Part shown: positions 17,353 through 34,040 of the stretch, piece by piece | How the letters are laid out: each line of letters opens with the position of its first letter | Numbering within the stretch: the first letter of the stretch is position 1 | Assembly: GCA_963821285.1 (NCBI GenBank) | Contig: CAWGDD010000010.1 | Span: 530,715-594,714 of the forward strand | DNA: 64,000 nucleotides | Source: an uncultured Acidobacteriota bacterium | Lineage (GTDB): Bacteria > Acidobacteriota > Vicinamibacteria > Vicinamibacterales > CAVVIG01 | Reading direction: 5' to 3' | Made by a program: the position numbers and the translations under genes | The notes under the pieces: generated by a model | What the model saw: only the letters and a program-made list of their open reading frames with translations | What the model was told of the DNA's origin: nothing | Databases searched by the model: none

Positions 17353-17381
17353 GAAATCTCCTCCTGTTCGGCGCTCGGATT

Positions 17382-17768: not shown

Positions 17769-17778
17769 CGCGTCCCGC

Positions 17779-18213: not shown

Positions 18214-18256
18214 ACCGTTATTTTACTTACGAGGAGGTCAAACCATTTACATGTGA

Positions 18257-19174
18257 TTACCGGGAGGACATCGAGAAACGGACCAGGACGTCCTCGACGA
18301 AATCCGCCACGATCTGCTGCTCGGGGCTCACGAACCGGAGGGTCGTGACGCTCAGCGCGCCCTCGCGGTGCTCCTTCTCGCTGACGGGCCGCCCGAACGA
18401 GAGCTCGGCCTCTTCGCGGGTCATGCCCTTGTGGGGCGCGACGGTCTGCACGACGGGAACATCGCGATCGTCGGGATCGTCCCGGTCGTCACGCGTCTGC
18501 ACGGGAACGGCCGGGTGGTAGCCGAGCGACGAGAAGTCCACGAACTCGGCCAGCGCCGCCATCACCTCGTCCGGCTTGATGCCGGACGGCACCGCGCCGC
18601 GGTAGCGGAGGTTGAAGCGCGAGCCGCCCTTCCTCCGGCGCTCGTCCAGCAACTCACGCTTACGGTCTTCAGCGGCGGCACGCTCGACGTCGATGCGGCG
18701 ATTCTTCCGCTCGCGGCGCTCGCGCAGTTCGTCGCGTTCGTGCTCGAGGCGGCGGCGCTCGTGCGAATCGTCTTCTTCCTTGATCAGCCGGTCGAGTTCG
18801 CGCTCGCGGCTGGTCGGCTCGACGTACGGGATGCTGACCGACGTGCTGGTGTCGTCGCCGAACGTGCCGTAGCCGCCGCCATTCAGCTGGAACTCGATGT
18901 GGTCGCCCTTGATTTTGACGAGCGTCACCGTCGCGGACTGGCGCGAGTGGATGGCGGTTCCGTAGAGCTTCAGGCGCTCGCCGTACTGCCGGTAATCGAG
19001 AGCGCTGCTCGAGTCGGCCTGCACGTCGATGCCGTCGGAGGTGCCGGGCATGTCGATTGCGAGGGTGACGCGGCGGCCTTCGAAGAACGACCGCAGGCCC
19101 GCTTCGTCCTGCGCGGCGACAGGCGTTCCACAGGCCAGGACGAAGGCGACGGCAACGAAGGCGCGACGTGACAT
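18257..19174 (-). CDS. secreted hypothetical protein with highly charged coiled-coil-like segment
   Basis: 305 aa with a signal peptide. The central stretch is RERELDRLIKEEDDSHERRRLEHERDELRERRERKNRRIDVERAAAEDRKRELLDERRRK. No domain recognised. Confidence 0.55.
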   Translation of the reverse strand: MSRRAFVAVAFVLACGTPVAAQDEAGLRSFFEGRRVTLAIDMPGTSDGIDVQADSSSALDYRQYGERLKLYGTAIHSRQSATVTLVKIKGDHIEFQLNGGGYGTFGDDTSTSVSIPYVEPTSRERELDRLIKEEDDSHERRRLEHERDELRERRERKNRRIDVERAAAEDRKRELLDERRRKGGSRFNLRYRGAVPSGIKPDEVMAALAEFVDFSSLGYHPAVPVQTRDDRDDPDDRDVPVVQTVAPHKGMTREEAELSFGRPVSEKEHREGALSVTTLRFVSPEQQIVADFVEDVLVRFSMSSR

Positions 19175-19267
19175 CAGATCCTCCGGATCGTCTATCGGCC
19201 CGGCGGATCTGATTGTTGAGGTGAGGTTCGCGGCGATGCGCGCCGCTGCACGGTTGCGATCACGAAA

Positions 19268-19290
19268 CGTCCGGCGTAGCCGGACGCTAC
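19268..19290 (-). repeat. REP element, variant stem (GTAGCGTCCGGC-TAC-GCCGGACG on the minus strand)
   Basis: The plus strand reads CGTCCGGCGTAGCCGGACGCTAC. It overlaps the stop of the hydrolase gene at 19287. Confidence 0.65.
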
Positions 19291-21709
19291 GCTCGGGTCG
19301 GAAGCTTCTGCTCGAGCCAGCCGCGAATCGCGTCGAACACCTCGCGGCGGTTGTTCTCGAGCATCATGAAGTGCCCGTTGCCGAGGATCCCCTTGTCTTT
19401 CAGGTTGAACTCCTCGGCATCCACGCCCGCCTGCTTCAGGAACGCGACCACGGGCGCGCCGTTCCTGCCCGAACGCTCGGCGACGACGTAGATCGTCGGG
19501 ATGTTCTGGAGGTTCTTGAGCTTCCGCGCGGGATCGGCCTGGAGCTTGTACGTCGCGCCGCCGGCGCCCGTCACGTCGCGCGTCGCGAGCTGCGACGGAT
19601 CGGCGGCGGGCGGATCGTAGACCATCGGCACGTCGGTGAGCCCCCACGGCGTGCCCGCCGCAAACGGCTGGCCGCCGCCCTCGACGTTGATGATCGCCTT
19701 CACCAGATTCGGCCGCTCGTTCGCGACGATCCAGCTGAACGGCCCGCCGGCCGAATGCACCTGGATGATCGCGGGGCCGATCCTCTCGAGCAGTTCCGCG
19801 CCGCGGCTCGCCCACAGCGTGTGCGCGAAGACGTTGTCCTGCGGCGCGGCGTTCTGCCCGGCGAGCACCTGATCGAGCAGCGGGTCGCCGTTGTCGCCGG
19901 TGCCGGGCCACTGGTGGTTCGGCCCGACGGCCGCGCGGCGCGTGTCGCCCGCGATCGCGGCGTAGCTCACGTTGCCGCCGATCGGCCCCAGCGAATCGGG
20001 GTGATACGGCGAGCGCCCGTGTCCCGGCCGGTCGACGAGGTAGACGCGGTAGCCTTCCTGCACGTAGTAGTGCGCCCACCCGGCCTTCTCGCCGACGCCC
20101 ATGTAGTGCAGCGCCGTGCCGCCGCCGCCGTGCACGAGCACGATCGGATACGGGTGGCGCACCTGCGCCGGCGTGAAGTACTGCACGAACATCTGACCGG
20201 TGATGATCGTGCCGTACGGCATCTTCTTGTGCTCGGTGCCGACCCAGAAGTAGCCGGTGTCGGCGAGCTTCATGGCCGTCGAGTCTTCCTTTCTGGCCGG
20301 CGGCTTCGGGTTCGACGGCTTCGCGCTTCCGTTCACGTTCTTGTCGATCCACGCGAGGATCGGCTTCAGCACCTCGCGGTTGTTCTTCTCGACCATCATC
20401 ATGTGGCCGTTGCCCTGGATGCCGAGCGTGACCAGCCGCATTTCCTCGGCCTTGCAGCCCGCCTGCTTGAAGTACGCGACGCCGCCGGGGTTGCCCGGCG
20501 ACGCAAACGACGCCTCGGCGGTGACGATGACGATCGGGATGTTCTGCAGGTTCTTCAGCTTGCGCGCGGGCTCTTCCTGCAGCTGATACGCGTTCACGCC
20601 CGGCTCGGGCGACTCCACCCGCTTCAACTTGATCTCGGACGGATCGGAAACCGGCGGATCGTACGCGACGGGAATCGTGGACATGCCCCAGACGTTGGCG
20701 CCGCCGAACGGCTGGCCGCCGCCTTCGATCGCGACGATACCCTTCACGAGGTTCGGACGGATTTCGGCGACGAGCCAGCCGAAGGGCCCGCCGGCCGAAT
20801 GGGTCATGATGATCGACGGACCGATCTTGTCGAGCAGCATCGCGCCGCGCTGACGCCAGACCATGTGCTGGCTGTCGGGTCCGCCTGCGGGCATGCCGGT
20901 CGCGCCGAGCACCGGAGGCACGGTGGGGGCCGGTGAGGTACCGCGCCGCGTCCAGCTGCGCCGGGAGCCGCACCACGTCCGGCGCCGCCGCGACCGCCCG
21001 CACCTGGCGGCGGCGCACCGAACCCGGCGACCTGGACGTACGAGCCGCCTTGCGAGGCGACGAGCTGGTCGAGATCGCGCGAGCCGAGCTCGCCGGTCCC
21101 CGGCCACTGGTTGTGCAGCTTGCGCAGGTCGTTGACCGCGGGCCGCGCCGCGTTGGGCGGCGTGAACTGCCCCGACATCTGCTCGAGCGGCAGGTTCTGC
21201 GCGGGGAACGGACCGTCCACGTCCGGATGAAACGGCGATCGGCCGTGGCCCGGACGATCGACCACGTAGACCTTGTAGCCTTCCTCGAGGAGTATCTGCG
21301 TCCAGCCGCGGCGTCCGTCAGGCGTGCCCATCCAGTCGAGCCCCTGTCCGCCGCCGCCGTGCACGAGCACGATCGGGTACGGATGGCGCACCTGTGCCGG
21401 AATGAACGATTCGACGTACATCTGCTTGCCGTTCACGAACGACCCGCGCGCCAGCTCGATCCGCTCGACGCCCACGAAGAAGTAACTCCACTCGGCGAGG
21501 TCGAGCGGCGCGAGCGCCGGCCCGGCGGCCACGCCCGTCTGCGCGGCGGCGGCCTGGGCCGGGTCGCCCAGCATCCAGCCGGGAATCGACACGCCTGCGG
21601 CAAGCACGGCCGACGCGCCGCGGATGAAACCGCGGCGGCTCACGCGACCCGCGGTGTATTCGCGATACAGATCGAACAGGCGTGGATTGACGTAAGGGTT
21701 GTTGGACAT
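19287..21709 (-). CDS. Tat-exported fused tandem alpha/beta-fold hydrolase (two homologous units), one frameshift at a G5/C5 run near 20925-20929
   Basis: Tat-like signal RRGFIRGASAVLAAG. Unit 1 and unit 2 both carry AQVRHPYPIVLVHGGGG, GY(K/R)VY(V/L)VDRPGHGRSP(F/Y)HPD, HSAGGPF and EGGGQPF. They are joined in frame by the linker NVNGSAKPSNPKPPARKEDSTA (unit 2 Met at 20273). Unit 2 has no signal peptide of its own. Confidence 0.75.
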
Positions 21710-21807: not shown

Positions 21808-22640
21808 TTACAGGCCGCCGGGATACCACTTCGACGCGTCGGCTTCCTTCTTGAAATGCGTGCTGGTGATGAAGGACTGCTGCAGATACTTCGGGTCCTC
21901 CACGATAGTGGTCACCGTGAACCACTCGTCGCCGTTCGCCTCGTTGTGGCGGTCGAAGTATTCGGTGACCACGGCGTTCTCGCTGTAAGGGACGCCGTTC
22001 TTCCGCAGGTAGCCTTCCTTGAGGCGGGTCGTCACGACTTTCAGCGAGCCGCCGCCGGGGCGGTGGACCGCCACGGCCGCGGCCCGGCGCCGCGGCGCCG
22101 CCGGCCGCCGGCGCCACCGTTCCGCCGGCGGGAGCCGGAGGCGGCGGACCACCTCGGCCAGGGGCGGGGCCGGCCATCTCCCACACCGCCGCCGAGTAAC
22201 CCTGCCAGCTGGGGTCACCACCGGGCGTGCCCGTGAAGTGCAGCAGACGTGTCTGCTGGCCCGCATCGGTCTCGATCTTCAGCGTCGTGTCGTCCTGCCA
22301 CGAGATGTGCAGGCGCCCCGGCACGCGCATGATGTTGCCGGCGCCGTACGACTTGCACGCGTTGCCGGCGGCCGTGTCCTTCGCCGGATCCCAGGCGTCG
22401 GCTACCGCTCTCGCGGCGCCGTTGAGCGGGACGCTCGCGTAATCGCCCTTGGGCGGCGTCACCATGCGGAAGCGCCAGTCCTCCGTCACGATCGACACCC
22501 AGTTGCCCGTGAGATCGATCGGCGACAGCGGCGCGCGCGCTGCCCGGCACCGGCGCCGCCGCCGGCTGCTGTGCGGCCATCGACCGGCCCAGCAGCGCAA
22601 GTGCAAAGACGATCGCGCACAGACGAATAATACGAATCAT
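21808..22640 (-). CDS. secreted S-family paralog 3 (triad A, position S2), at least 2 frameshifts
   Basis: Signal MIRIIRLCAIVFALALLGRSMAAQ. N-domain DLTGNWVSIVTEDWRFRMVTPPKGDYASVPLN...CKSYGAGNIMRVPGRLHISWQDD. Gly/Pro/Arg linker. C-domain SLKVVTTRLKEGYLRKNGVPYSENAVVTEYF...EDPKYLQQSFITSTHF. Shifts near 22535 (GCGCGCGC run) and near 22055 (linker). Confidence 0.7.
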
Positions 22641-22653
22641 GCTGTCCTCAACG

Positions 22654-22676
22654 GCAGGCCTGAAGGCCTGCACTAC
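22654..22676 (-). repeat. REP element
   Basis: GCAGGCCTGAAGGCCTGCACTAC is the exact reverse complement of the consensus GTAGTGCAGGCCTTCAGGCCTGC. Confidence 0.8.
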
Positions 22677-22730
22677 ACCTGCCGGTCGACCCGCCCGACG
22701 CCCGCCGCCGACCTGCCAGACCCGCCAGAC

Positions 22731-23762
22731 CTACTTCTTCGCCTTGCTCAGATCCTTGTAGACCGCTTCGATGAACTGATCCGTCGTCCAGAAGCCGCTC
22801 GTCGCACCCCATCGCGCGTCGTAGTCGAGCGTCGGCTTCCCGGCCTTCACCTGGTCGAGCGTCTGCCCGCGCTTGACACCATCCTGAATGCGGTCGCGGA
22901 TGATCGTGATCATGTCCCGATACTCGAGCAGATCGGCTTCGTCGGTCAGGCGGCCGTGGCCCGGGATGATATAGGTGCCGCCTTCCTGCATCGCCTTCGG
23001 GATCGCGATGTCGAGCATGTTGTTCAGCGCCGCGATGATCCCGGTGATGTTCCCGCCGCGCGCCGAGTCGATGAACGGGTACGTCGTCGTGACGAAGAGA
23101 TCCCCGGCGACGATGACGTCCGACTTGCGGAAGTACACGATGCTGTCGCCGTCGGTGTGGGCCGCGGGCTGGTGGATGACCTGCAGCGACTCCCCGTTGA
23201 AGAAGAGCTCCTTCTGCTTCGAAATGTAGGTGTCGGTCGGCCACGCGGTCGTCGGGAACGGCGCCTGCTGGCCGGTCGGCGCGCTCATGCGGTTCAGGAC
23301 GTTTTCGTGCGCGATGATACCGGCACCCACGCCCGCCCCGGCGCCCACGTTGCCGCCTGCGATCGTGCTGCCCAGCTTCCCGATGTAGTCGTTGCCGCCA
23401 ACATGATCCGGGTGCACGTGGGTGTTCACGATGTAGCGAATCGGCTTGTTGCTCAGCGTGCGGATGGCGGCCACGACCTTCTCCGCGTTCGCCGCGAGCC
23501 CGGTGTCCACCAGCAGCACGCCGTCGTCGCCAATCTGCAGCGCGATGTTGCCGCCGGCGCCGACCAGCATGTGCACGTTGCCCTGCACGTGCAGGATGTG
23601 GAGCTCGGCGTCCGCAGCCGCGGGCGCGGCGCCTCGCCCGCCGCGGCCTCCGCCGGCGCCCGGCTGCGGAGCCTGCCGGGCCTCGCCCTGTACACCCGAA
23701 TACACGAGCGAGGCGATCGCGACAGCGGCCAGCGCGGCCAGCTTCGAGGTATTGCTCTGCAT
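22731..23762 (-). CDS. periplasmic MBL-fold metallo-hydrolase (triad A)
   Basis: 343 aa with a signal peptide. HxHxDH motif VNTHVHPDHVGGN, a later H (AAHTDGDS) and PGHG. Gly/Arg-rich insert GAGGGRGGRGAAP after the signal peptide. Confidence 0.8.
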   Translation of the reverse strand: MQSNTSKLAALAAVAIASLVYSGVQGEARQAPQPGAGGGRGGRGAAPAAADAELHILHVQGNVHMLVGAGGNIALQIGDDGVLLVDTGLAANAEKVVAAIRTLSNKPIRYIVNTHVHPDHVGGNDYIGKLGSTIAGGNVGAGAGVGAGIIAHENVLNRMSAPTGQQAPFPTTAWPTDTYISKQKELFFNGESLQVIHQPAAHTDGDSIVYFRKSDVIVAGDLFVTTTYPFIDSARGGNITGIIAALNNMLDIAIPKAMQEGGTYIIPGHGRLTDEADLLEYRDMITIIRDRIQDGVKRGQTLDQVKAGKPTLDYDARWGATSGFWTTDQFIEAVYKDLSKAKK

Positions 23763-23772
23763 GCGCGGACTC

Positions 23773-24672
23773 CTACCGGCCGGCCGCTGCGGCCGGCGTC
23801 ATGTTCTGCAGCTTCAGCATGTACTCGGGATACATCGTCTCGGCGCCGCCGCGCGTCGGCTCGAACGGGAGCTTTTCCTTCACGGCGAACTCACGCAGAA
23901 ACGTGTTCGAGCCAGGCAGGTGATGCGGCACGTAGCCCTGCTCGCGTTGGATTTCGGCGACGTACTGGCACGGATATGGCGCGATCTGCTGATGCGGATC
24001 GAGGCCCCAGTTGGTCGTGCGCACGAACGGCTCGGTCAGATACACCGGATCGCTGATGACCGAGATCAGCGTCAGGTAGTTGTCGTGGCGCACGAAGTGC
24101 TCGGTGAGCACCGCCTTGTCGCTGCGCGGGATGCCATTACGGCGAATCCATCCCATCTTCAGGTGCGTGGTCGTCACCGTCAGCATGTCGCCGTCCCACT
24201 TGCCGGTCGAGAACCCCTGCCACGTATGCGCCGCGTACTCCGGCGGATGCGGGCGGCCGTCCATCCAGATCGTCCGTTCGGGCTGCTGCCACGAGATGTG
24301 CGTGTGGATCGCCACGAGCTGCTGCGAGGGACCGTCGAACTCGCGCCAGATGCGCAGGTTGGCGGGGCCGCGCGGCGAGTAGTCGGCGGGGTGCGGCTTG
24401 CACTGATGTTCGGGTAGCGTCAGGAGGGACGCGTCCCAGCTGTCTCCGTGCAGACGCCCCGCTTCGTTGATCGGCAGGCCGAGGTAATCGCCGATGTCCG
24501 GCCCCGGAATGCGCTCCGGCTGGTCCTCGTGGAAACGCGGCGCCCACTCGCCCGACAGGTCGGTCCCGATGGAGGGTCCCGGAGGGCCCTGCGCCAGCAC
24601 GGGCACGACGACGCTGGCGGCCGCGGCGACCAGCAGCGCGGAAACGAACGCGGTCGAAAGTTTGTGTGCCAT
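23773..24672 (-). CDS. secreted S-family paralog 4 (triad A, position S1)
   Basis: 299 aa with a signal peptide. LSGEWAPRFHEDQPERIPGPDIGDYLGLPIN...CKPH...TWQGFSTGKWDGDMLTVTTTHLKMGWIRRNGIPRSDKAVLTEHF...SDPVYLTEPF. Confidence 0.75.
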   Translation of the reverse strand: MAHKLSTAFVSALLVAAAASVVVPVLAQGPPGPSIGTDLSGEWAPRFHEDQPERIPGPDIGDYLGLPINEAGRLHGDSWDASLLTLPEHQCKPHPADYSPRGPANLRIWREFDGPSQQLVAIHTHISWQQPERTIWMDGRPHPPEYAAHTWQGFSTGKWDGDMLTVTTTHLKMGWIRRNGIPRSDKAVLTEHFVRHDNYLTLISVISDPVYLTEPFVRTTNWGLDPHQQIAPYPCQYVAEIQREQGYVPHHLPGSNTFLREFAVKEKLPFEPTRGGAETMYPEYMLKLQNMTPAAAAGR

Positions 24673-24789
24673 GTCAGTTCAGAATCCGGCGCGACGTGCG
24701 CCCGGTGGGCGTGCATTTTACGATTAGTGCCCCCCGAACACCAGAAACCCCTTTGACATAGGTCCTTGCGCAATCGGTATCGCCCGATT

Positions 24790-25239
24790 TCAAAAGGATT
24801 TTCCAAAGAACTGGAGCACGCGGCCCCAGTACATCACACCGACCCAGAGGAACAACGACACGGCCGCACTCACCTTCGCGCCGGATGGCGCCTCCTCCCC
24901 CGCCTCGACCCCGTCCGCGGCACGCTTGAGGCCCGTCACGTAATACAGGAAGGCGTTCAGGCAGGCCAGAAGGATAAAGAACATCTTGGCGACAAACGAC
25001 AGGCTGAGCGGCGGCCCGACATACTGGCCGGGGTTCGCGGCGATGAAGACCACTCCGCTTCCGAGGCTCATGACGAACCCCAGCAGGGCCCACGGCATCA
25101 GGCGCTGCAGCGGCGCCACGGGCAGCCGTTTGGCCATGCCGAGCAGGCGCAGGTCGAGGATTCCGGCAAAGCCAATCAGCATCGCCATGCCGATGAAGTG
25201 CAGGCTCTCGCAGACCGGGAGGATCCAGCTGGCGATCAC
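24790..25239 (-). CDS. small 4-TM membrane protein, H...DLRxLG family (X3)
   Basis: Putative GTG start (MIASWILPVCESLHFIGMAMLIGFAGILDLRLLGMA...). The C-terminal YWGRVLQFFGKSF resembles the other family members. Confidence 0.55.
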   Translation of the reverse strand: MIASWILPVCESLHFIGMAMLIGFAGILDLRLLGMAKRLPVAPLQRLMPWALLGFVMSLGSGVVFIAANPGQYVGPPLSLSFVAKMFFILLACLNAFLYYVTGLKRAADGVEAGEEAPSGAKVSAAVSLFLWVGVMYWGRVLQFFGKSF

Positions 25240-25253
25240 GTCAGAAGTCGGCC

Positions 25254-25739
25254 CTAGAAGTATGCAATGTAGCGCCCGGCCGTGATGGCACCGAACCAGC
25301 ACAGGATCGACGCGGCGGCGAGGTACCGGCTGGAGGCGCTGGACACATCCACGCCGGCGGCATCAACAGCGGCCGACCGGAACACACGGCGCCGGATCGC
25401 GATCGTGATCCCCGCGGCGAGAAACACCAACGTCATCTTGACGAGGTAGGCCGGGTTCTCGAGTTTCGCCGTCGCATCGCTGAAGAACAGCACCGCGCCC
25501 GACGCGGCGTTGACGGCAAACGCGATCCAGATCACCCTGAAGAACGTGTCAAAGGGCGCGAGAGGGAGCCTGCGCCCGACGCCGAGGATCCGCAGGTCGA
25601 TCGCCACGCTGGGCCCGACGGTGAACGACAGCCCGACGGTGTGCAGAAACAGCAGCGTCGGGTAGCCCCAGAGAGACGGCGACTCCTTCAGCCAGCTCGC
25701 CCACGCGCTGCCCTCGATTGACTGCAGCCAGCCCATCAT
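25254..25739 (-). CDS. small 4-TM membrane protein, H...DLRxLG family (X2)
   Basis: MMGWLQSIEGSAWASWLKESPSLWGYPTLLFLHTVGLSFTVGPSVAIDLRILGVG...ITAGRYIAYF. Close paralog of 26861-27352. The start overlaps the micro-ORF stop (ATGA). Confidence 0.7.
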   Translation of the reverse strand: MMGWLQSIEGSAWASWLKESPSLWGYPTLLFLHTVGLSFTVGPSVAIDLRILGVGRRLPLAPFDTFFRVIWIAFAVNAASGAVLFFSDATAKLENPAYLVKMTLVFLAAGITIAIRRRVFRSAAVDAAGVDVSSASSRYLAAASILCWFGAITAGRYIAYF

Positions 25740-25831
25740 GACTCGTTCATTCTGTTGATCAGGTACGCGGCCGCACCGACGACCAGCACGGCGGCCGAAA
25801 CGGCGAGGCAGACGGTGAGCCAGAGCGCCAT
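25736..25831 (-). CDS. candidate 31-aa single-TM micro-protein
   Basis: MALWLTVCLAVSAAVLVVGAAAYLINRMNES. The ATG lies 2 nt after the X1 stop and its stop overlaps the X2 start, a translational-coupling geometry. Confidence 0.35.
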   Translation of the reverse strand: MALWLTVCLAVSAAVLVVGAAAYLINRMNES

Positions 25832-25833
25832 TG

Positions 25834-26789
25834 TCAGAACGCGTTGCCGATGAACGGCAGCATGTGGCCGCAGAACAGGACGGCGGCCCACAGAGCGATC
25901 GCCGACGCCGCCGCGACCTTCGACGGCAGCGGCGCATCGTCGCCCGATCCGACGGCCCAGACGTCGTCTTCGAGCATGAAGTACAGGAGGTTGATCCCGC
26001 CGAGCACGACGAAGAGGATCTTCCAGTAGAACGTCTTGTTGTGAATGTACTGCGGCAGGGCGCCGAGGAAGAAGCAGCAGGCCGGTCACGAGATTCAGGC
26101 CGAAGCCGAGCATGCCGAGCGGCAGCAGCTGATAGACGGCGGCGTACGGCAGGCGCTCTGGCCACGCCGAGCAGCCGCAGGTCCACGATGAGCACCACGG
26201 TGAACAGCAGGCTCAGGCCGATGAAGTGCAGCGTCTCGGCCGTCGGCCACACCCACGAATGACCGGACACGAACATGCCGATCGCCTGCGCGGTGCCGGC
26301 CACGGCATCTTCGCCGGTCGATGCCGCCGCGCGAATCTCCGGGTGGTGAATCTCGCCGCCGAGTTCGGCCGCGCGCGCCATCAGGCCGAACGCCACGACC
26401 GCCGACAGCAGCACGACCGGCAGCTGCCAGCGATCGAGCCTTGGCACGCGACGCCACTGCCAGAGCGCCAGCCAGGCCAGAAAGCCGGTGATCTCCATGA
26501 CCGCGAACGCCAGAAGCGCGGCGTCCTCGTGCGCGCGCACGGCGCGAGGCGAGATGTCAGACCGATCCTGCACGACCGCCTCGGCGGCGTTCCCCGACAG
26601 GTAGGCCGCGATGGCGACGACGGCGACGACGAAGAACATCACGAGGCCGGCGCGCGTCAGGTCGTCGTGCCGTTTCAGCCGGGCGACGACGAAGAGCGCG
26701 AGCGCGACGCCGAACCCCACCGTGGGCACGTGATTGAGCCACATGTGCACGTGCGCCGGGTTCGACAGCATCTGGAGCATTTCATTCAC
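25834..26789 (-). CDS. two-module membrane protein (X1): N-terminal 4-TM module fused to an H...DLRxLG module, 2 frameshifts
   Basis: N-module MNEMLQMLSNPAHVHMWLNHVPTVGFGV...AAELGGEIHHPEIR. C-module WVWPTAETLHFIGLSLLFTVVLIVDLRLLGVA, then LPYAAVYQLLPLGMLGFGLNLVTG, then FFLGALPQYIHNKTFYWKILFVVLGGINLLYF...CGHMLPFIGNAF, recovered across three frames (shifts near 26153 and 26070). Confidence 0.6.
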
Positions 26790-26792
26790 GAA

Positions 26793-26850
26793 GTAGTGCA
26801 GGCCCTTTCAGGGCCGCTCTTCAGCTGGCAGGGCTAAAGGCCTGCACTAC
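26793..26850. repeat. REP doublet in inverted orientation (REPIN-like)
   Basis: GTAGTGCAGGCCCTTTCAGGGCCGC (26793-26817), a 10-nt spacer, then GCAGGGCTAAAGGCCTGCACTAC (26828-26850). It lies exactly between 26861-27352 and 25834-26789. Confidence 0.8.
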
Positions 26851-26860
26851 TACACCAGCG

Positions 26861-27352
26861 TCAGAGTCCGCTCACCGGCCCCACGTACGCGAGCAGACGG
26901 CCGGCGGTGATCGCGCCCAGCCAGCACACGAGGGATGCCGCGGCCAGCGCCTTCGCGCCGGATGTCACCGGAGCGGGCTCGGATTCGGGCCCGCGGAACA
27001 CGCGCGCGTCAATCGACCGCCGGACGATGACGGCCGCGAAGATGAACGCCATCTTCACGAAGAAATCGGGGTTGGCCAGCTTCGTGGTGGCATCGGCGAC
27101 GAGCAGGATCGTCCCGGTGGCCGCGTTGACAGCGAACGCGACCCACAGGGCCGGCAGGAACCTGCGCATCGGCGCCAGCGGAAGCGCCGGCGCAAAGCCG
27201 AGAATCCGCAGGTCGATGCCCGCGGCGAGGCCCACGACCACGGCCATTCCGCAAGTGTGCAGGAGCAAAATGCCCGGGTACGCGAACAGCGACCGCGACT
27301 CGCGTACCCAGGCCGACAACCCGGTTTGCTCGAGGTACGCGAGGAACTCCAA
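26861..27352 (-). CDS. small 4-TM membrane protein, H...DLRxLG family (Y3)
   Basis: 163 aa. FAYPGILLLHTCGMAVVVGLAAGIDLRILGFA...ITAGRLLAYV. Confidence 0.7.
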   Translation of the reverse strand: MEFLAYLEQTGLSAWVRESRSLFAYPGILLLHTCGMAVVVGLAAGIDLRILGFAPALPLAPMRRFLPALWVAFAVNAATGTILLVADATTKLANPDFFVKMAFIFAAVIVRRSIDARVFRGPESEPAPVTSGAKALAAASLVCWLGAITAGRLLAYVGPVSGL

Positions 27353-28238
27353 CTACGGCTTCGCCGGCACGTCGACCGGCGGATCGATCTTGCAGGGCGA
27401 GGGATTCCATTTCGCCCCGTCTTTCTCGAGCTTGAAGTGCGTGCTCGTGATGAACGGCACCTGCAGGTACTTCGCATCCTCGACGACGGTCCGCACCAGC
27501 AGCACGATGTCGCCGTTGGGCTCGGGCCCGACCTTGTCGAAGTATTCCGTGATCGACGCGTTCTCGCTGTAGGGCACGCCGTTCTTGCGCAGGTAGCCCT
27601 CGCGGAAGTTCGTCGTGACCACGTGCAGCGAGCCGCCGCGCGGCGGCGCCGCTCCTCGCACGTCCACCGCCCCCGCCTCCACCCCCGCGTCCGCCGCGGC
27701 CGCCGGCTGGCGGAGCCACCGGGATGCCGTTGCGATCGACGGCGACCGACTGGCCTGCGATTTCCCAGTTGGCAGCGGAATACCCCTGCCACGTCTTCGG
27801 GGCTTTCGCCACGGTCTTGTCGGCGAAGTTCAGCAGGCGCGTCTGCGTGCCGGCATCGAACTCGAGCTTGAGCGTGGTGTCGTCCTGCCAGGTGATGTGC
27901 ATGCGGCCGGGCATCCGCATGATGTTGCCCACGCCGTACGGCTTGCAGGCGAGACCGCCCGCCTCGTCTTTGGCCAGGTTCCAGGTGTCAGCCACGCGAC
28001 GGCCTTCGTCGTTAATCGGCACGCTCGCGTAGTCGCCCTTGGGCGGCGTCAGCATGCGCCAGCGCCAGTCTTCGGTGATGAGGGCCACCCAGTAGCCGGT
28101 GATGTCGACGGGCGCGATCGTTCGCGGTGTGCGCGGCGGCGCGGGTGGCTGTGTCGCGGGGGCGGCCGGCTGTTGAGCACCCGCCGTCACGCCGACGACG
28201 AGCGCAATCGCGAACGCGAACGCGATTCTGATCTTCAT
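27353..28238 (-). CDS. secreted S-family paralog 5 (triad B, position S2), frameshift in poly-Gly linker near 27670
   Basis: Signal MKIRIAFAFAIALVVGVTAGAQ. ITGYWVALITEDWRWRMLTPPKGDYASVPIN...CKPYGVGNIMRMPGRMHITWQDD. Linker GGRGGRGGGGGGGG. C-domain SLHVVTTNFREGYLRKNGVPYSENASITEYF...EDAKYLQVPFITSTHF in the frame of ORF 27353..27682. Confidence 0.7.
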
Positions 28239-28248
28239 CCAATCACTC

Positions 28249-29232
28249 CTACCGGACGACCGGTTTGCCCTTGGGGTTCGAGAGGTCCTTGAAGACGGCC
28301 TCGACGAAGCCTGCGGTGGTCACGAAGCCGGTGTCCGACCCGTAGTGGAGGTCGTAGTCGAGCGTCGGCCTGGCCGCCTTGACCTGGTCGATGGTCAGGC
28401 CGCGCTTGATCATGTCCTGGATGCGGTCGCGAACGATCGTCACCATGTCGCGGTACTCGAGGACGTCGGCCTCGTCGCAGATGCGTCCGTGGCCGGGGAT
28501 GACGAAGGTGCCGCCTTCCTGCTCGTGCGCCGGCACCGCGATGTCGAGGATGCGGTTGAGCGCGTTGAGTTCGCCCTGAATGCTGCCGCCGTTTGCCTGA
28601 TCGATGAACGGATACGACGTCGTGACGAACACGTCGCCCGCCACCACGACGTCGGACTTGCGCAGGTGCACGATCGAATCGCCGTCGGTGTGGGCGGCCA
28701 CGTCGTGAAACAGCAAGACGGCTTCGCCGTTGAAGTAGATGTCCTTCTCCTCAGGGAAGTAGGTGTCGGTCGGCCACGACGCGGTGGGCAGCTTGTTGGC
28801 CGGCGCGCTCATCCTGGTCAGCACGTTCTCGTGCGCGAGGATCTCGGCAGGCCCGCCGTTGGTCTTGCTGCCCGCCTTCGCGACGGCTTCGTTGCCGCCC
28901 GTGTGATCGGGGTGGAAATGCGTGTTCAGCACCCACCGGATCGGCTTGTCGGACAGCTTCCTGATCGCGGCGATCACCCGATCCGCGTTTTGCGCCAGCC
29001 CCGTATCGACGACGAGCACGCCATCGTCACCGATCTGCACGGCGATGTTGCCGCCGGCGCCGACCAGCATGTAGACGTTGCCCTGCACGTGGATCGAGCC
29101 CAGCTCAGCGTTGTTCCGGGCGGCCTGGGCGGCCGGCGCTTGGGCCTGGAGGGTGGACAGGGACACGCGCTGGGCGACGCCGACGGCGCCGAGCAGCGCG
29201 CACGCGGCGATCAGTGTGCTCTGAGTAGTCAT
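28249..29232 (-). CDS. periplasmic MBL-fold metallo-hydrolase (triad B)
   Basis: 327 aa with a signal peptide and LNTHFHPDHTGGN. Roughly two-thirds identical by eye to 22731-23762 along the whole length. Confidence 0.8.
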   Translation of the reverse strand: MTTQSTLIAACALLGAVGVAQRVSLSTLQAQAPAAQAARNNAELGSIHVQGNVYMLVGAGGNIAVQIGDDGVLVVDTGLAQNADRVIAAIRKLSDKPIRWVLNTHFHPDHTGGNEAVAKAGSKTNGGPAEILAHENVLTRMSAPANKLPTASWPTDTYFPEEKDIYFNGEAVLLFHDVAAHTDGDSIVHLRKSDVVVAGDVFVTTSYPFIDQANGGSIQGELNALNRILDIAVPAHEQEGGTFVIPGHGRICDEADVLEYRDMVTIVRDRIQDMIKRGLTIDQVKAARPTLDYDLHYGSDTGFVTTAGFVEAVFKDLSNPKGKPVVR

Positions 29233-29235
29233 GAA

Positions 29236-30121
29236 CTATTTCGTCCCTGACGCCGCGGCCGGCTTGGGCGGCTTCGGCAGTGTTTTCAGCTTGGCCATGT
29301 ATTCCGGGTAGGTCGTCTCGACGCCGCCCTTTGCGGCGTCGACGGGCACGCCGTAGCGATAGGCGAAGTCGCCGTCGAACGGGCTGCGGCCCGGGAGGTA
29401 ATGCGGCACGGCGCTGTGCGGACGGTCGACGATTTCGTCCACGTACTCGCACGGCCACAACCAGTTGCCGGCCGTGCGCTCGTTGAGGACGAAGTCCTCG
29501 CTGCGCCACAGCGGCTCGGCAAGGTACACCGGATCGGTCCACTGCACGAGGTGCGACATGATGTTGCCGTGGCGGATGAAGTGCTCGATCATCGTCGACT
29601 TCTCGCTGTTCGGCACGCCGTTGCGCCGCACCCACTCCTGCTTGATGTGAGTGGTGTACACGGTGAGGATGTCGCCGTCCCATTTGCCCGTGGAGAAGCC
29701 CTGCCACGTGTGCGGCGCGTATTCGGGCGGGTGCGGGCGGCCGTCCATCCAGATCGTGCGGCTCTGCTCGTAGGTATTGAGGTACACCTGGAGGGCCACG
29801 AGTTGCTGCGTGCGCGGGTCTTTCTCTTCCCAAATACGGAACTGGATCGGGCCGTGAAGGATGTACGGAGCGTTGTGCACCTTGCACTGGTGCTCGCGCA
29901 GCGTCAGGCGCGACGCGTCCCAGCTGTCGGCCGCGAGCCGGGCGCCGTCGGTCAGCGGCAGCCCGGTGTAGTCGCCCAGTTCGGGTCCGGGAATGCGGTC
30001 CGGCTGATCTTCGTGGTACCGCGGGCTCCATTCCCCGACGAGGCTCACCTGCGCCAGCGCCGGCGCGGAGAGCGCCAGCACGGCGACGCCGGCCAGGATC
30101 CCGCCCTGTCCAGTTGCTCAT
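29236..30121 (-). CDS. secreted S-family paralog 6 (triad B, position S1), frameshift in the signal-peptide region near 30103
   Basis: ATG at 30121 is preceded by GAGGAG (MSNWTG, then after the shift GILAGVAVLALSAPALAQ). The body LVGEWSPRYHEDQPDRIPGPELGDYTGLPL...TWQGFSTGKWDGDILTVYTTHIKQEWVRRNGVPNSEKSTMIEHF parallels 23773-24672. Confidence 0.7.
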
Positions 30122-30146
30122 CGGGCAACTCCTCATCGCGCTGCTC

Positions 30147-30625
30147 CTATCCGCCAAACCCAATCCACCGGCCGCCCCACGCGACCGCGAACCACAGGCC
30201 CACCGACACGAGGGCCGACCGACTTGCTCGTGGCCGGCAGAGACGTGGGCGGCGTCGGCCAGCGAGACTCTCCTGCGCACCGTGAACGTGAACAGCATCG
30301 CCAGCAGGAGGGCGATCATCTTGATCCAGAACGCGGGGCTCACGTAGCACTTCGTCGCCTCGGACGTGTACAGCGACACGCCGGACACGAGCATCACGAT
30401 CAGGCTGCCGACGAGCCACGGGTGCGCGTCCTTCGCCAGCTGCTTCACCGGCGTCTCGCGCAGGCCAAGCCCCAGCATCCGCATGTCCACGATGAGCACG
30501 GCGCCGCCAATCACCGCGAGCGCCGCGAGGTGGAAGTACTCGATGATCGGGAACGCGTACTGCGAGTTGCGGATGGCGACGCCGAGCGCCGTCGCCTCCG
30601 ACCATTTCGCAAACTCCCACAACAT
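30147..30625 (-). CDS. small 4-TM membrane protein, H...DLRxLG family (Y2), frameshift near 30230
   Basis: MLWEFAKWSEATALGVAIRNSQYAFPIIEYFHLAALAVIGGAVLIVDMRMLGLG... The C-terminus ALVSVGLWFAVAWGGRWIGFGG is recovered in the frame of ORF 30147..30620. Confidence 0.6.
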
Positions 30626-30655
30626 GTGCTGGAATCCCCGGCGTCCCGGCCTCCC

Positions 30656-31210
30656 CTACTGGGGAGCCTCGGGCGCCTCGCAGCCCGCGAGGGTGCTGAT
30701 GATGTGCGACTGCTCCGGCTTGTCGCAGTCGAACCAGTTGTAGGCGATCATGCGCCCGCAGAAGATGATCGTCATCCAGAGCACGAGCGACGCGTAGCCG
30801 GCGAAGCGCGCCGAGCGCGGCGGCACCGGGTCACGGTCCCAGGGCTGGATGCCGCGGGGATGAAACACCCACGCGTTGATGCCGGCCAGCACGAGCAGCA
30901 CCAGCTTCACGCGGAAGAAGATGTTCTGGTACGAGCGAATCGGGATCGCGTAGAACAGCAGGATGCCGCTGACGACCATGACCACGAACCCGAACGTCGT
31001 CCAGGGCAGGATGCGCCTGGCGATTTGCGAAACGGGAACGTTCGTGAACGACAGACCGGTCAGGCGCAGGTCGAGCACCACGGCCAGGCCGACGAACAGG
31101 CACAGCGCCCAGACGTGAATCGATTCGACGATGGGATAGCCGTAGAGCGATTCGTGGAGGGCGACGCTCCAGGGCGTGTCCGCCATCCATTTGAAGAAGC
31201 CGAGCAACAT
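30656..31210 (-). CDS. small 4-TM membrane protein, H...DLRxLG family (Y1)
   Basis: 184 aa. YGYPIVESIHVWALCLFVGLAVVLDLRLTGLS...CGRMIAYNWF. First gene of the co-oriented array. Confidence 0.7.
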   Translation of the reverse strand: MLLGFFKWMADTPWSVALHESLYGYPIVESIHVWALCLFVGLAVVLDLRLTGLSFTNVPVSQIARRILPWTTFGFVVMVVSGILLFYAIPIRSYQNIFFRVKLVLLVLAGINAWVFHPRGIQPWDRDPVPPRSARFAGYASLVLWMTIIFCGRMIAYNWFDCDKPEQSHIISTLAGCEAPEAPQ

Positions 31211-31367: not shown

Positions 31368-31988
31368 ATGAGGCGCCGCGTCATCCCGCTCATCGCCCTT
31401 GTCCTTCTGATGCCGCCGGCCATCGTGTGGGGCATCGGGCTGTGGGTCGCGCGGACCGAGGGGTTCAGCGCGCGCGAGGAGCCGCGGACTCTCGAGCGCA
31501 TGATGGCGCGCACAGCGCGGCGCTGGGCCGTGCCGGCCGCCGCGCGCCGCGCGGCCAACCCGATCGTCTTCTCACCGGACGTGTGGATGGAGGGTCGCGC
31601 GCACTTCGCCGACCACTGCGCGTCGTGCCACGCTAACGACGGCAGCGGCGATACCGAGCTCGGCCGCAACATGTTTCCGCGGGCGCCCGACATGCGGCTG
31701 CCGGACACGCAGAATCTGACCGACGGGGAAATCTACTGGGTCATCGCAAACGGCATCCGCCTGACGGGCATGCCGGCCTGGGGGCCTGGTGGGCCCGACG
31801 ATGCGGATACCTGGAAGCTGGTGCATTTCATCAGGCGGCTGAAGGACCTGACCGCCGCCGACCTCAAGACGATGAAGGCGCTGAACCCGAAGTCGCCCGA
31901 GGAGTACGAAGAAGAACGCGAGGACGAGCGATTCCTGACCGGCGAAACGCCCGCGATACCGTCGCCAGAGGCGCACCACCACGATTAG
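31368..31988 (+). CDS. membrane-anchored monoheme c-type cytochrome
   Basis: 206 aa with an N-terminal TM helix and heme motif CASCH, plus GMPAWG. Divergent from the array at 31210. Confidence 0.8.
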   Translation: MRRRVIPLIALVLLMPPAIVWGIGLWVARTEGFSAREEPRTLERMMARTARRWAVPAAARRAANPIVFSPDVWMEGRAHFADHCASCHANDGSGDTELGRNMFPRAPDMRLPDTQNLTDGEIYWVIANGIRLTGMPAWGPGGPDDADTWKLVHFIRRLKDLTAADLKTMKALNPKSPEEYEEEREDERFLTGETPAIPSPEAHHHD

Positions 31989-32001: not shown

Positions 32002-32319
32002 ATGAAACACCTCATTCGCGCAGCCGCCGCACTGGTTCTGACCCTGGCCCTGGGCGTCCCTGCGTTCGCGCACGGAACCAACGCCCACGTCCGTGGCGTC
32101 GTGACGCAGGTGACGGCGAAGTCCGTCACCGTGCAACTGGCCGACAACACCACCAAGACGCTGACCCTCAGCGCCAAGACCACCTTCGAACGCGCGGGCA
32201 AGCCCGCCGCGATGACCGACCTGAAGGTGGGCGACCGCGTTGTCATCGACGTGCCGAAGAATTCCAGCGAGGCGCTCGAAGTGCAGATCGGCACGGCGCC
32301 CAAGGCCGCGACAAAGTAG
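32002..32319 (+). CDS. small secreted beta-rich protein (DUF5666-like, tentative)
   Basis: 105 aa. Signal peptide ends ...GVPAFA, followed by HGTNAHVRG. VTQVTAKSVTVQLADNTTKTLTL...VGDRVVIDV. Confidence 0.5.
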   Translation: MKHLIRAAAALVLTLALGVPAFAHGTNAHVRGVVTQVTAKSVTVQLADNTTKTLTLSAKTTFERAGKPAAMTDLKVGDRVVIDVPKNSSEALEVQIGTAPKAATK

Positions 32320-32334: not shown

Positions 32335-32358
32335 GTAGGACGGCCCTTGAGGGCCGCC
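32335..32358 (+). repeat. REP element (variant stem)
   Basis: The sequence is GTAGGACGGCCCTTGAGGGCCGCC. A partial head GTAGCGCGGCCCGG at 32316-32329 contains the stop codon of the preceding gene. Confidence 0.6.
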
Positions 32359-32382
32359 GCAATTCATAAGGAGATGCTGACC

Positions 32383-32709
32383 ATGACCCGCAGTCGACTC
32401 CGTGTGACTCTCGGCGCGCTGGTCTGCGCGCTCGTGTTCTCCACGTCCGCCAGCGCCCAAACGGCCAAGGGCGAGCACGCCTTCAAGGGTGTCGTGCAGA
32501 AGATCGACGAAAAGGCCAAGTCGCTGACCGTGGACGGCGAAAACGTGCCCGGCTGGATGATGGCGATGACGATGTCCTACACGGCCGACAAGGAAGAGGT
32601 CTTCAAGACGGTGAAGGCCGGCGATCAGATCACGGCGACGGTGAAGGACGGCGACTTCAAGACGTTGTACAACGTCAAGGTCGTGCCGAAGGAGGCGCCG
32701 AAGAAGTAG
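32383..32709 (+). CDS. CusF-like periplasmic copper-binding protein
   Basis: Start at the third Met (AAGGAG 9-10 nt upstream). Signal peptide. GVVQKIDEKAKSLTVDGENVPGWMMAMTMSY...GDQITATV is the CusF-type OB fold with a Met-rich site. Confidence 0.65.
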   Translation: MTRSRLRVTLGALVCALVFSTSASAQTAKGEHAFKGVVQKIDEKAKSLTVDGENVPGWMMAMTMSYTADKEEVFKTVKAGDQITATVKDGDFKTLYNVKVVPKEAPKK

Positions 32710-33181
32710 GCGGCGTGACGCCGTTCATTCGGGCATAGACGACCATCTGCCCGTAGTGGTCGTAGCTGTGGAACGCGATGCCTGCGGCCACGGCCGCCCG
32801 CGGCTGCGATCCGAAATAGGTGCGGAGCGGGTCCAGCTGGTTCTTCTCGTTCAGTGACGCCATGGCCTTCCTGGCGTACGCGATCGAGCCCTTCAGATAC
32901 TCCACAACCTGCGCCTTGCCAAGGACAGTGTCCGGCCCGTTATCGTTGGTGCCGGGACCGTAAGGCGACCTCTCTTCGAGCACGATCGCGGCGGTCATGT
33001 ACATCATGGTCGCCGCGTGCCTGACCTGCTCCCCGAACGTCCGCACGCCCTCGAACGCCCCGGCCTCCGGGCGGAAGTCGTACTTGTCGGCCGGCATCGC
33101 CTCAGCGAGGTTCACGAGGTCGTGTTCGACGAGATCCAGCTGCTTCTGGTACATGTCCGTCACCGGATCCACGCGCGGCAT
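32675..33181 (-). CDS. DinB-family protein
   Basis: 168 aa. DLVEHDLVNLAEAMP...RTFGEQVRHAA...AFHSYDHYGQMVVYARMNG is the DinB four-helix His pattern. The 3' end overlaps the CusF-like gene by about 35 nt. Confidence 0.75.
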   Translation of the reverse strand: MPRVDPVTDMYQKQLDLVEHDLVNLAEAMPADKYDFRPEAGAFEGVRTFGEQVRHAATMMYMTAAIVLEERSPYGPGTNDNGPDTVLGKAQVVEYLKGSIAYARKAMASLNEKNQLDPLRTYFGSQPRAAVAAGIAFHSYDHYGQMVVYARMNGVTPPTSSAPPSARP

Positions 33182-33224: not shown

Positions 33225-34040
33225 CTAGCGTGCGGTGTGGAACGCGAGGGTGACCCAGAAGCTCTCCCACTCCGGGCCCGGGGGGAATGCCTTGGGCAAC
33301 CGCTCCATGTGAACGGTCTTCACGAGCCACGCGCCGGCGCGATCGATGGGGAACGTCGCCCTGCCCTGAGCGTCGGTCTGACGCGGGATCTCGCCGCCGT
33401 CGACCGCCGCGCTGACGGCAGCGTTCGGTGCGGGCCGTCCGTTGACCAGCAGTTGAACCGTCAGGGTCTCTCCAGCGCGGACTGACGTCGGGTCGGTGGC
33501 CGGCACCAGCTCCGCCCTGACGCCGACCGGTCTCGTCAGGTGCGCCGCGCTTCCCTCTCCGTTGCGGATCGCCAGCTTGGCGTACCGGGAATATCGTTCC
33601 TTGGCCGGCCGGTCGAGCTCACCGGCAGCTTTCCGCTCGGCGAGCGCATCGGTCAGCCCTTCTTCTTTCAGGTAGTCGTTGAACTCGTCCGCCTTCATCT
33701 CGATCGTGCGTGGCGTCACCCGCATGACGGCGAGGAACGCGCCTGTCGCCGGTAGGTTGACATCGGCCACCATCGCCAGCTCGCGCCGCTCGAACATCTT
33801 GGACACGGGAATCGCGGCGGACGGCCCGATGATCCGCCAGTCGTCGAACCAGTTCGCCGGCGTCTTGAAATCGAGACGGGTTGGGAAGTGTTCGCCGACG
33901 CCCGCGCTGATGCCGAACGGCGTCCCCGCATCCGGGGTCCAGTTCGATGCGGCAAGCCAGAAATCGTGTGCCGAGAGGTGCGCGGTCGCCAGCGCAAGGG
34001 CGACCGCCGTGGCCACGCCGAAAGGAATTCTGATGCGCAT
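33225..34040 (-). CDS. DUF4198-domain periplasmic protein (Ni/Co-uptake-associated family)
   Basis: 271 aa. Signal peptide ends ...AHLSA, followed by HDFWLAASNW, the typical DUF4198 N-terminus. Confidence 0.75.
   Translation of the reverse strand: MRIRIPFGVATAVALALATAHLSAHDFWLAASNWTPDAGTPFGISAGVGEHFPTRLDFKTPANWFDDWRIIGPSAAIPVSKMFERRELAMVADVNLPATGAFLAVMRVTPRTIEMKADEFNDYLKEEGLTDALAERKAAGELDRPAKERYSRYAKLAIRNGEGSAAHLTRPVGVRAELVPATDPTSVRAGETLTVQLLVNGRPAPNAAVSAAVDGGEIPRQTDAQGRATFPIDRAGAWLVKTVHMERLPKAFPPGPEWESFWVTLAFHTAR

Follow-up and report, generated by a model that had tools for sequence, protein, structure and literature searches.

What are the closest described relatives of the thirteen-gene cluster that occupies positions 21808 to 31210 of the 64,000-nucleotide (nt) stretch of Acidobacteriota DNA analysed here (the window)? 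The cluster encodes two copies of a triad, consisting of a secreted metallo-beta-lactamase (MBL)-fold hydrolase and two secreted paralogous proteins that we call S1 and S2, together with six DUF6644-type membrane proteins (M1 to M6) and a 31-codon micro-open reading frame (micro-ORF). The type III alkyl/aryl-sulfatases, exemplified by SdsA1, combine an MBL catalytic domain with an SCP-2-like domain that binds hydrophobic ligands. The likeness lies in the coupling, sometimes the fusion, of an MBL hydrolase to a small-ligand-binding domain that would recruit a poorly soluble substrate; in the present system, however, the partner is predicted to be calycin-like rather than SCP-2-like, it is N-terminal or a separate subunit, and no sequence similarity was detected. 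The SoxH and quinoprotein relay proteins (TIGR04558 and TIGR04559) are, like the MBL protein of one window triad (MBL-A), secreted MBL-fold proteins with an HxHxDH motif; they are uncharacterised and are encoded next to periplasmic redox enzymes. These systems lack S1/S2 barrels, whereas the window lacks a SoxYZ-like carrier, a CXXCW protein and a pyrroloquinoline quinone (PQQ) dehydrogenase. Within the literature searched, the quinoprotein relay MBL is named in one paper only, as a predicted and unstudied gene of the ped cluster. The CopC/CopD proteins (YobA/YebZ, YcnJ) likewise include small multi-transmembrane (TM) proteins with a conserved His, and the window membrane proteins are found beside CusF, DUF5666 and DUF6152, small secreted proteins of the metal-binding type; but M5 scores below threshold for PF05425, the hhalign probability against YebZ is 2% or less, and there is no CopC homolog. 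TonB-dependent loci resembling polysaccharide utilisation loci, which unite an outer-membrane transporter, a binding protein, periplasmic enzymes and a regulator, offer a further parallel, with S1-MBL(-S2) directly 3' of a CarboxypepD_reg/TonB-type outer-membrane protein (OMP) and beside AraC regulators, esterases and tannases. Yet a SusD-like lipoprotein is missing, the family of the binding proteins is a new one, and the window cluster itself lacks the OMP. Finally, DUF6644 and DUF2231 are families of unknown function, for which the M4 fusion, the dedicated microprotein and the link to S1-MBL described below have not been reported. The system is therefore an uncharacterised one, in which a periplasmic hydrolase of the MBL fold is accompanied by new partner subunits and by DUF membrane proteins, though it is not demonstrably a new category.

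How do the parts of the cluster belong together? We counted gene contexts in the best 80 of at least 578 S1-bearing genomes, the latter obtained from a scan of one genome per species; all 80 are Acidobacteriota metagenome-assembled genomes (MAGs) of the Vicinamibacteria, Bryobacterales and Terriglobia. A same-strand MBL gene lies directly 3' of 96 of the 102 S1 genes that have room downstream in these loci, and 21 of the 80 loci hold more than one S1 gene. S2, present within 10 kb in 33 of the 80, is optional. By comparison, only 13 of the 80 loci have DUF6644 genes within 10 kb of S1-MBL, and the membrane genes also occur as a unit without S1-MBL; because of these two observations, we conclude that the triads form one module and the membrane genes another, and that the two can be separated and do not make up a single obligate system. 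The first-pass annotation had regarded the cluster as a single candidate envelope system and had suggested conservation of the gene neighbourhood as a check. Synteny does hold, with the S1-MBL pairing conserved and the full thirteen-gene order recurring in loci L003, L004 and L005 and in the metagenome contigs P0003 and P0464, but the separable membrane genes divide that single system in two. We refer to S1-MBL-S2 as Module A. Module B comprises M4, the microprotein and an M3/M5-type DUF6644 protein, to which the window adds M1, M2 and M6.

The separable membrane unit is an M4 gene followed by the microprotein gene and then by an M3/M5-type gene. It lies directly 3' of MBL in L001 and L031 as well as in the P0088 contig, where a multihaem CytoC_RC protein is encoded between MBL and M4. 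In L086, a single operon reads HpaB-S1-MBL-micro-M3-M4, with a divergent OMP gene adjacent. The same unit is found without an adjacent S1-MBL in L084 (6867-11316) and in the P0449 contig, and its neighbours there are a PQQ-dependent dehydrogenase, a cytochrome c and a tannase. We note that two records, L006 (labelled Bifidobacteriaceae) and L060 (labelled Bordetella parapertussis), contain typical acidobacterial S1-MBL or membrane-module clusters that are 65-79% identical to the window, and that their taxonomic labels seem to be mistaken, as a result of mis-binning or mislabelling.

Natural gene fusions are the best evidence that the triad is a single physical complex. S1-MBL fusions are represented by P0126, P0216, P0233 and P0235 and by many single ORFs of 560-650 amino acids (aa), in both Illumina and nanopore MAGs. 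Similarly, S1 is fused to S2 in P0122, a secreted protein of 501 aa, and in its cluster members P0516 and P0517, with sequences drawn from JGI, NCBI, ENA and Logan assemblies. Because of these S1-MBL and S1-S2 fusions, we propose that S1, MBL and S2 very probably constitute a single periplasmic complex.

In the window, the minus strand, translated in three frames between 31300 and 21700, yields thirteen genes, all co-oriented, in the order M1, M2, S1B, MBL-B, S2B, M3, M4, micro-ORF, M5, M6, S1A, MBL-A, S2A. Triad B consists of S1B (29236..30121, ~295 aa, secreted), MBL-B (28249..29232, 327 aa, secreted and intact) and S2B (27353..28238, a secreted S2 paralog with a Gly/Arg-rich insert), and triad A of S1A (23773..24672, 299 aa, secreted and intact), MBL-A (22731..23762, 343 aa, secreted and intact) and S2A (21808..22640, secreted, with a Gly/Pro/Arg linker). 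Triad B is preceded by M1 (30656..31210, 184 aa, intact) and M2 (30147..30625, ~158 aa), and between the triads stand M3 (26861..27352, 163 aa, TTG start, intact), M4 (25834..26789, ~314 aa), the micro-ORF (25736..25831, 31 aa), M5 (25254..25739, 161 aa, intact) and M6 (24790..25239, ~150 aa). An alternative, longer M6 ORF with a GTG start extends to 25302; M6 orthologs are 147-150 aa long. Most intergenic gaps measure 0-30 nt, three junctions measure 71-117 nt, and the micro-ORF and M5 overlap by ATGA. The positions, the common strand and the tight spacing are thus essentially as the first-pass annotation had given them, apart from the three wider junctions, and its duplicated triad is borne out by BLAST: S1A and S1B are 52% identical (E 4e-105), MBL-A and MBL-B 64% (E 3e-141, close to the two-thirds it had estimated) and S2A and S2B 60% (E 7e-89). 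S1 and S2 are themselves paralogs, with 25-29% identity and E values down to 5e-23. The two triads are old paralogs, and each probably acts on a different substrate. Scanning the cluster for promoters, terminators and Rfam families gave no informative signal, the terminator-like matches falling within genes.

What can be said of S1 and S2? Neither has a match in Pfam, NCBIfam or the sequences of the PDB, S1 having been searched both as a single sequence and as a profile, and the first-pass annotation was thus right that the S proteins could not be assigned to a known pathway. The family is nonetheless large. S1A retrieves 7309 and S1B 6615 homolog clusters at 90% identity, those of S1A all being unnamed or "hypothetical", and an exhaustive search of 50%-identity representatives gives 4547 matches at E <= 1e-3, 474 of them at E <= 1e-30. 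The family is often present in several copies per genome and is 70-95% conserved within clades. A tblastn search of 72,556 plasmids with S1 returned no match, and we set aside the idea that the system is mobile or carried on plasmids. An AlphaFold2 model of S1A, built from a 79-sequence alignment (predicted local distance difference test, pLDDT, 70.6; predicted template-modelling score, pTM, 0.65), contains a nine-strand beta core at residues 106-224. The top Foldseek matches of the model are barrels of the retinol-binding (CRBP), fatty-acid-binding (FABP), SAHS and avidin types, at a best E of 1.7e-3, with target-normalised TM scores of 0.55-0.62 and a root-mean-square deviation of ~7 Å; S1 may thus be a calycin/FABP-like barrel, an assignment that we regard as weak. 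The profile and structure searches that the first-pass annotation had recommended therefore point to no characterised family with a joint function, and for S1 they provide a weak barrel match alone. In a wider alignment of homologs with 37-62% identity, the near-invariant S1 residues are D138, G139, R140, P143, G153, F154, T156, G157, H170, K172, R178, G180, S184, D208, P209 and E283; the Cys pair is not universal, nor are most of the S1 histidines. The conserved set resembles a polar ligand pocket more closely than it does a multi-His metal site. S1, S2 and MBL alike have signal-peptide-like N-termini. We propose that S1 and S2 probably serve to bind or present a substrate that is small, anionic and in part hydrophobic.

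The MBL proteins have the residues expected of a di-metal hydrolase of this fold. MBL-B scores 82.6 bits against PF00753 (cutoff 22.7 bits), to which MBL-A is assigned indirectly, through the annotation of its homologs. MBL-A carries HVHPDH...H...D...D...H, and MBL-B carries HFHPDH with the same downstream ligands, so that the HxHxDH motifs reported by the first-pass annotation are intact in both copies and are followed by the later His, Asp, Asp and His; 77 of 100 MBL homologs, both window copies included, keep the whole pattern. The best NCBIfam match of MBL-A is TIGR04559, at 106.9 bits versus a cutoff of 280, followed by TIGR04558 at 71.5 bits versus 300, and it is a member of neither family. 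Furthermore, the window cluster encodes no PQQ dehydrogenase, SoxYZ-like carrier or periplasmic binding protein. The best PDB match of MBL-A is 8d2z, an unnamed MBL-superfamily protein (E 4e-13), and the chlorothalonil dehalogenase and VIM enzymes are much weaker matches. The clusters of the distant fused homologs bear generic JGI names only ("cyclase", "glyoxylase-like hydrolase"), and literature searches on SoxH with MBL, on Acidobacteria with MBL and tannase, and on 8D2Z gave nothing useful. Some S1-MBL fusions of 560-790 aa, including L053 10004-11776, L059 9944-11656, L064 2675-4369, P0126, P0216, P0233 and P0235, have SADADL, SPDPDH or TEGRDY at the position of the motif; P0216 has an additional C-terminal domain of ~150 aa. 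Fusions that lack the HxHxDH histidines are possibly pseudo-enzymes or mononuclear variants. A second MBL type keeps company with the same partners: in L055, a 560-aa secreted protein (17153-18835, minus strand) with a different C-terminal MBL domain (INTHQHFDHSGG) shares its operon with cytochrome c, a DUF5666-like protein, DUF6152, S2, M4 and M3.

When all genes of the 80 loci are clustered, several other families recur around S1. The most frequent is a CarboxypepD_reg/TonB-type outer-membrane protein (19/80 loci), followed by DUF6152 (15), an HpaB-family monooxygenase (12), a bicupin (10), a flavin reductase (9), an AraC regulator (9), a twin-arginine translocation (TAT)-signal tandem alpha/beta-hydrolase (8), a carboxymuconolactone-decarboxylase-like protein (8) and tannase/feruloyl esterases (8 loci, 19 genes). 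Also recurrent near S1-MBL are genes for multicopper oxidases and for TIM-barrel proteins of the xylose-isomerase-like kind. Typical layouts are bicupin-HpaB-(flavin reductase)-S1-MBL, several tannase genes followed by S1-MBL, AraC-S1-MBL, and OMP-S1-MBL-S2. In the window, a TAT-signal tandem alpha/beta-hydrolase gene (19293..21709, minus strand; PF00561 and PF12697; frameshifted here, with a product of ~770-820 aa in relatives) is the probable continuation of the operon 3' of S2A, and the same gene lies 3' of S2A in L003, L083 and the P0464 contig.

Because HpaB, flavin reductase, bicupin, tannase, TAT hydrolases, TonB porins and AraC recur around S1-MBL, we propose a role in the processing of aromatic esters or lactones. 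Module A would act in the periplasm as a di-metal MBL-fold hydrolase with one or two calycin-like barrels, and would cleave ester, lactone or similar bonds by hydrolysis in aromatics of plant or humus origin. These substrates would enter through the TonB-type outer-membrane proteins, and the products would feed HpaB-type hydroxylation and cupin-type ring cleavage in the cytoplasm. Module A may thus be a diversifying catabolic cassette, and Module B a separate, accessory inner-membrane unit that joins it in a minority of genomes. Taken as a whole, with a periplasmic catabolic hydrolase complex as its first part and an accessory membrane unit as its second, this is the reading that we favour, tentatively and at somewhat less than even chances. 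Gene content, paralogy, conservation, synteny, the fusions and the signal-peptide-like N-termini are observed directly; complex formation is strongly suggested by the fusions, while the hydrolase chemistry, the class of substrate and the role of Module B are deduced from sequence and context.

A number of observations weigh against a catabolic hydrolase for aromatics. Each neighbour family occurs in only 10-25% of the loci, HpaB and flavin reductase are cytoplasmic, and the link to aromatic catabolism is one of guilt by association. The context sampling is phylogenetically narrow, with Acidobacteriota MAGs accounting for 80 of 80 loci. The S1 model is of moderate confidence, and its Foldseek matches are weak. 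In 23 of the 100 MBL homologs, almost exclusively S1-MBL fusions, the first-site histidines have been lost in favour of SADxDx-like sequences, though the later His, Asp, Asp and His are kept; such MBL domains may be mononuclear or non-catalytic, and S1 could then be the catalytic part. For Module B, a redox or metal role fits at least as well with the kinship of MBL to SoxH-like proteins and with the neighbouring genes for cytochrome c, CusF and DUF5666. Finally, our literature search gave no biochemical or published evidence for any of the components.

What, then, is Module B? As the first-pass annotation had suspected, its proteins belong to no characterised family. M2 (93.1 bits when its frames are stitched) and M1 (44.5 bits) pass the 27-bit cutoff of DUF6644 (PF20349), M6, M4 and M5 fall below it at 23.7, 21.6 and 19.5 bits, and M3 has no match. 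All six membrane proteins are nevertheless linked by BLAST (E 1e-7 to 2e-48), M3 being 47% identical to M5 and 51% identical to its L001 ortholog, and the L003 and L004 orthologs of M1 are 91-93% identical to it. The motif by which the first-pass annotation had grouped the six is real: the Pro and His of helix 1, the D-x-R-x-x-G sequence and the C-terminal Gly are among ten invariant positions, namely P26, H32, D47, R49, G52, P59, G82, K102, W145 and G152 in M1 numbering. With the exception of M4, these are 4-TM proteins. M4 has eight TM helices, its C-terminal half being of the DUF6644 type and its N-terminal 4-TM half weakly similar to DUF2231 (PF09990; 21.5 bits for the stitched protein versus a cutoff of 26.4), and some M4 orthologs (P0449 and P0456) carry a precomputed PF09990 match. 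An AlphaFold2 model of the M4 ortholog P0391 has eight helices, with a pLDDT of 85.9 and a pTM of 0.86. A profile search of M4 against PDB sequences and a Foldseek search of the model found nothing meaningful, the best match having an E of 0.35 and consisting of generic G-protein-coupled receptor helices. Some M4 homologs, of ~425 aa (P0439, P0444-P0466) and ~390 aa (P0434-P0440, P0459), are extended at the N-terminus by a PDZ (PF13180) or a PF19296 domain; in the P0464 contig the PDZ form takes the place of plain M4 in a cluster that is otherwise like that of the window. The literature search returned no paper mentioning DUF6644 or DUF6152, and for DUF2231 it returned one database survey of DUF proteins, in which the family is without characterisation.

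The micro-ORF encodes a single-TM peptide of the form MPLWLxVxLxV...AYLI(N/D), which is conserved 3' of M4-type genes in L003-L006, L042, L084, L031 and L039. The microprotein is kept wherever an M4-type gene had an ATG-start small ORF downstream, the genes being called at 31-35 aa; it has no Pfam match. We propose that Module B most likely links the periplasmic enzymes to the membrane, and that it would do so by handling electrons or metal or by taking up products.

Might the entire system instead serve periplasmic redox chemistry or metal handling? Here the DUF6644 proteins and M4 would bind haem or copper, with cytochrome c, CusF/DUF5666 and DUF6152 as their partners in the exchange of electrons or metal, S1 and S2 would be metallochaperone-like or cofactor-binding, and MBL would be of an oxidoreductase or relay type, a function that has been proposed for the SoxH-like proteins encoded beside PQQ dehydrogenases. 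The first-pass annotation had taken a hint in this direction from the surrounding genes, and the genes beside M1 fit it in part. Divergent from M1 are genes for a cytochrome c with a His-rich tail (31368-31988, plus strand), a DUF5666/CusF-like protein (32002-32319, plus strand) and a CusF-like protein (32347-32709, plus strand), all identified by Pfam, and the trio adjoins M1 also in the P0003, L083 and P0464 contigs. In L055, of the Bryobacterales, cytochrome c and a DUF5666-like protein are co-oriented with the MBL-domain protein, DUF6152, S2, M4 and M3. A role of this kind is further favoured by the best NCBIfam matches of MBL, which are the SoxH-related quinoprotein relay metallohydrolases, represented in Pseudomonas putida by PP_2678, a gene of the ped PQQ-dehydrogenase cluster; by the PQQ dehydrogenase and cytochrome c that adjoin Module B in L084 and the P0449 contig; by the multihaem protein between MBL and M4 in the P0088 contig; by the invariant His, Asp and Arg in the TM helices; and by DUF6152, whose mature form starts HHSF and may be a His-brace protein. 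However, the MBL protein, at 107 bits versus 280, is not a member of TIGR04559, and M5 reaches only 18.9 bits (E 0.002) versus the 32.1-bit cutoff of CopD (PF05425). CopD homology of DUF6644 found no support in an hhalign comparison of the A3 and A2 alignments with Escherichia coli YebZ, at 2% and 0.1% probability, a comparison that uses a single-sequence template and is of low power. Moreover, neither CxxCH nor any other cofactor motif is present in S1, S2 or the membrane proteins, conservation across the wider S1 family does not extend to the Cys pair or to most of the histidines, 67 of the 80 S1-MBL loci have no membrane gene, and only 4 contain cytochrome c and DUF5666 genes. The hint holds at best for the membrane module with its cytochrome c, DUF5666 and CusF neighbours, whereas the S1-MBL core is found mostly amid genes of aromatic catabolism, and a redox or metal role for the whole, the main rival reading, is in our judgement unlikely.

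Several side observations concern these same neighbours. The cytochrome c tails are rich in His in the window (31368-31988), in L003 (2720-3349) and in L055 (19437-20051), ending in ...EAHHHD, ...PHHHLE and ...HEHHHH, and the L055 DUF5666-like protein has the His-rich tail HTEDSHTHDSH. Two DUF6152 genes lie elsewhere in the window (1363-1776 and 54208-54660, both on the minus strand; 124 and 68 bits), with HHSFAA as the predicted mature N-terminus, and the N-terminal His could form a histidine-brace metal site. Beyond the CusF gene are a DinB_2 gene (32675-33181, minus strand), which occupies the same position in L083, and a DUF4198 gene (33225-34040, minus strand, 111 bits).

It is very improbable that MBL is a defensive or signalling hydrolase, acting in beta-lactam resistance or as a lactonase on N-acyl homoserine lactones or other signals, with S1 and S2 capturing the ligand. 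The MBL fold, the intact di-zinc ligands and the secretion signal would fit such an enzyme, as would calycin-like partners able to bind acyl chains, and there are weak sequence matches to class B beta-lactamases. These matches are nevertheless far below the cutoffs of 200-240 bits for every model (B1 46.6, B2 36.8 and B3 33.8 bits for MBL-A), the genes are present in several copies per genome and in catabolic contexts, and none of the 72,556 plasmids gave a match to S1. Nor was any defence system matched, and anti-phage defence was set aside after PADLOC returned nothing for S1, S2, either MBL, M1, M3 or M4.

The state of the genes in the window itself needs comment. Whereas the first-pass annotation was correct on the positions and strand of its thirteen ORFs, five of the genes (M2, S1B, S2B, M4 and S2A) are readable only with frame changes, ~8 in all within 9.4 kb of coding sequence; the other seven genes and the micro-ORF are open throughout. 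The breaks lie in M2 near 30232 and 30215 (two 1-nt insertions), in S1B near 30108, where a 1-nt insertion severs the signal-peptide region, in the GGC/GGG-rich linker of S2B near 27668, in M4 at 26156/26150 and 26074, and in S2A at 22529 and ~22056. We aligned the cluster DNA to its relatives L004 and L003, at 87.5% identity. Relative to L004, the window has one extra nucleotide at 30232, 30215, 30108, 26074 and 22529 and ten at 27668, and L003 agrees with L004 at the unambiguous sites in the rows shown; at 26156/26150 and ~22056, where the alignment is gappy and repeat-rich, the net change is +1. In the relatives, the genes are intact and in the same order (M2 158, S1B 285-308, S2B 287-303, M4 314-324 and S2A 276-287 aa), the S1B orthologs being 85-95% identical and the M4 homologs of 314 aa 95% identical. 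Similar breaks occur outside the cluster at 12809-14067, 14079-16317 (three breaks), 16335-16914 and 19293-21709, each compared with intact L003/L004 orthologs, and one protein of ~743 aa outside the cluster requires three frame changes. From 12809 to 21709 there is roughly one frame break per 1-1.5 kb, which suggests an error-prone long-read assembly. Other long-read MAGs are broken elsewhere, in MBL-B in L003, in M4 in L004 and at many sites in L080. Because the relatives carry intact genes in the same order and because similar breaks recur elsewhere in the window, the frame breaks are probably assembly errors, as judged from these alignments, and not decay specific to the cluster; the organism most likely carries thirteen intact genes. 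That the cluster is a decaying remnant in which ~8 frameshifting insertions have truly inactivated five genes is barely credible, since the unambiguous sites are all insertions relative to L004 (and to L003 in the rows shown), the flanking frames are 85-100% identical to intact orthologs, the surrounding sequence is free of decay, genes beyond the cluster and other MAGs are broken likewise at other positions, and seven genes and the micro-ORF are intact, and we set pseudogenisation aside.

Finally, what would these proteins mean for the Acidobacteria and for the families to which they belong? At 90% identity the S1 family falls into over 7,000 clusters, and at 50% identity into ~4,500, yet it has no Pfam or NCBIfam model, solved structure or literature. 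Two testable targets come from the membrane module, namely the conserved microprotein and the 8-TM fold without a solved relative. We consider it possible, though quite unlikely, that S1/S2 and MBL represent an unrecognised class of heteromeric periplasmic enzyme in which the barrel would give specificity or even catalysis, optionally wired to a new inner-membrane module of an 8-TM protein, a microprotein and 4-TM paralogs that lack a solved structural relative, and that this class would provide a major route for polyphenolic and humic carbon in soil Acidobacteria; catalysis by the barrel is hinted at because some S1-MBL fusions have lost the histidines of the zinc site. Acidobacteria are among the most abundant of soil bacteria. 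If Module A is indeed a periplasmic hydrolase for plant aromatics, then it would fill a gap in the acidobacterial turnover of tannin, lignin and humic carbon, and the S1 and MBL pair could be used as a metagenome marker for aromatic-hydrolase activity.

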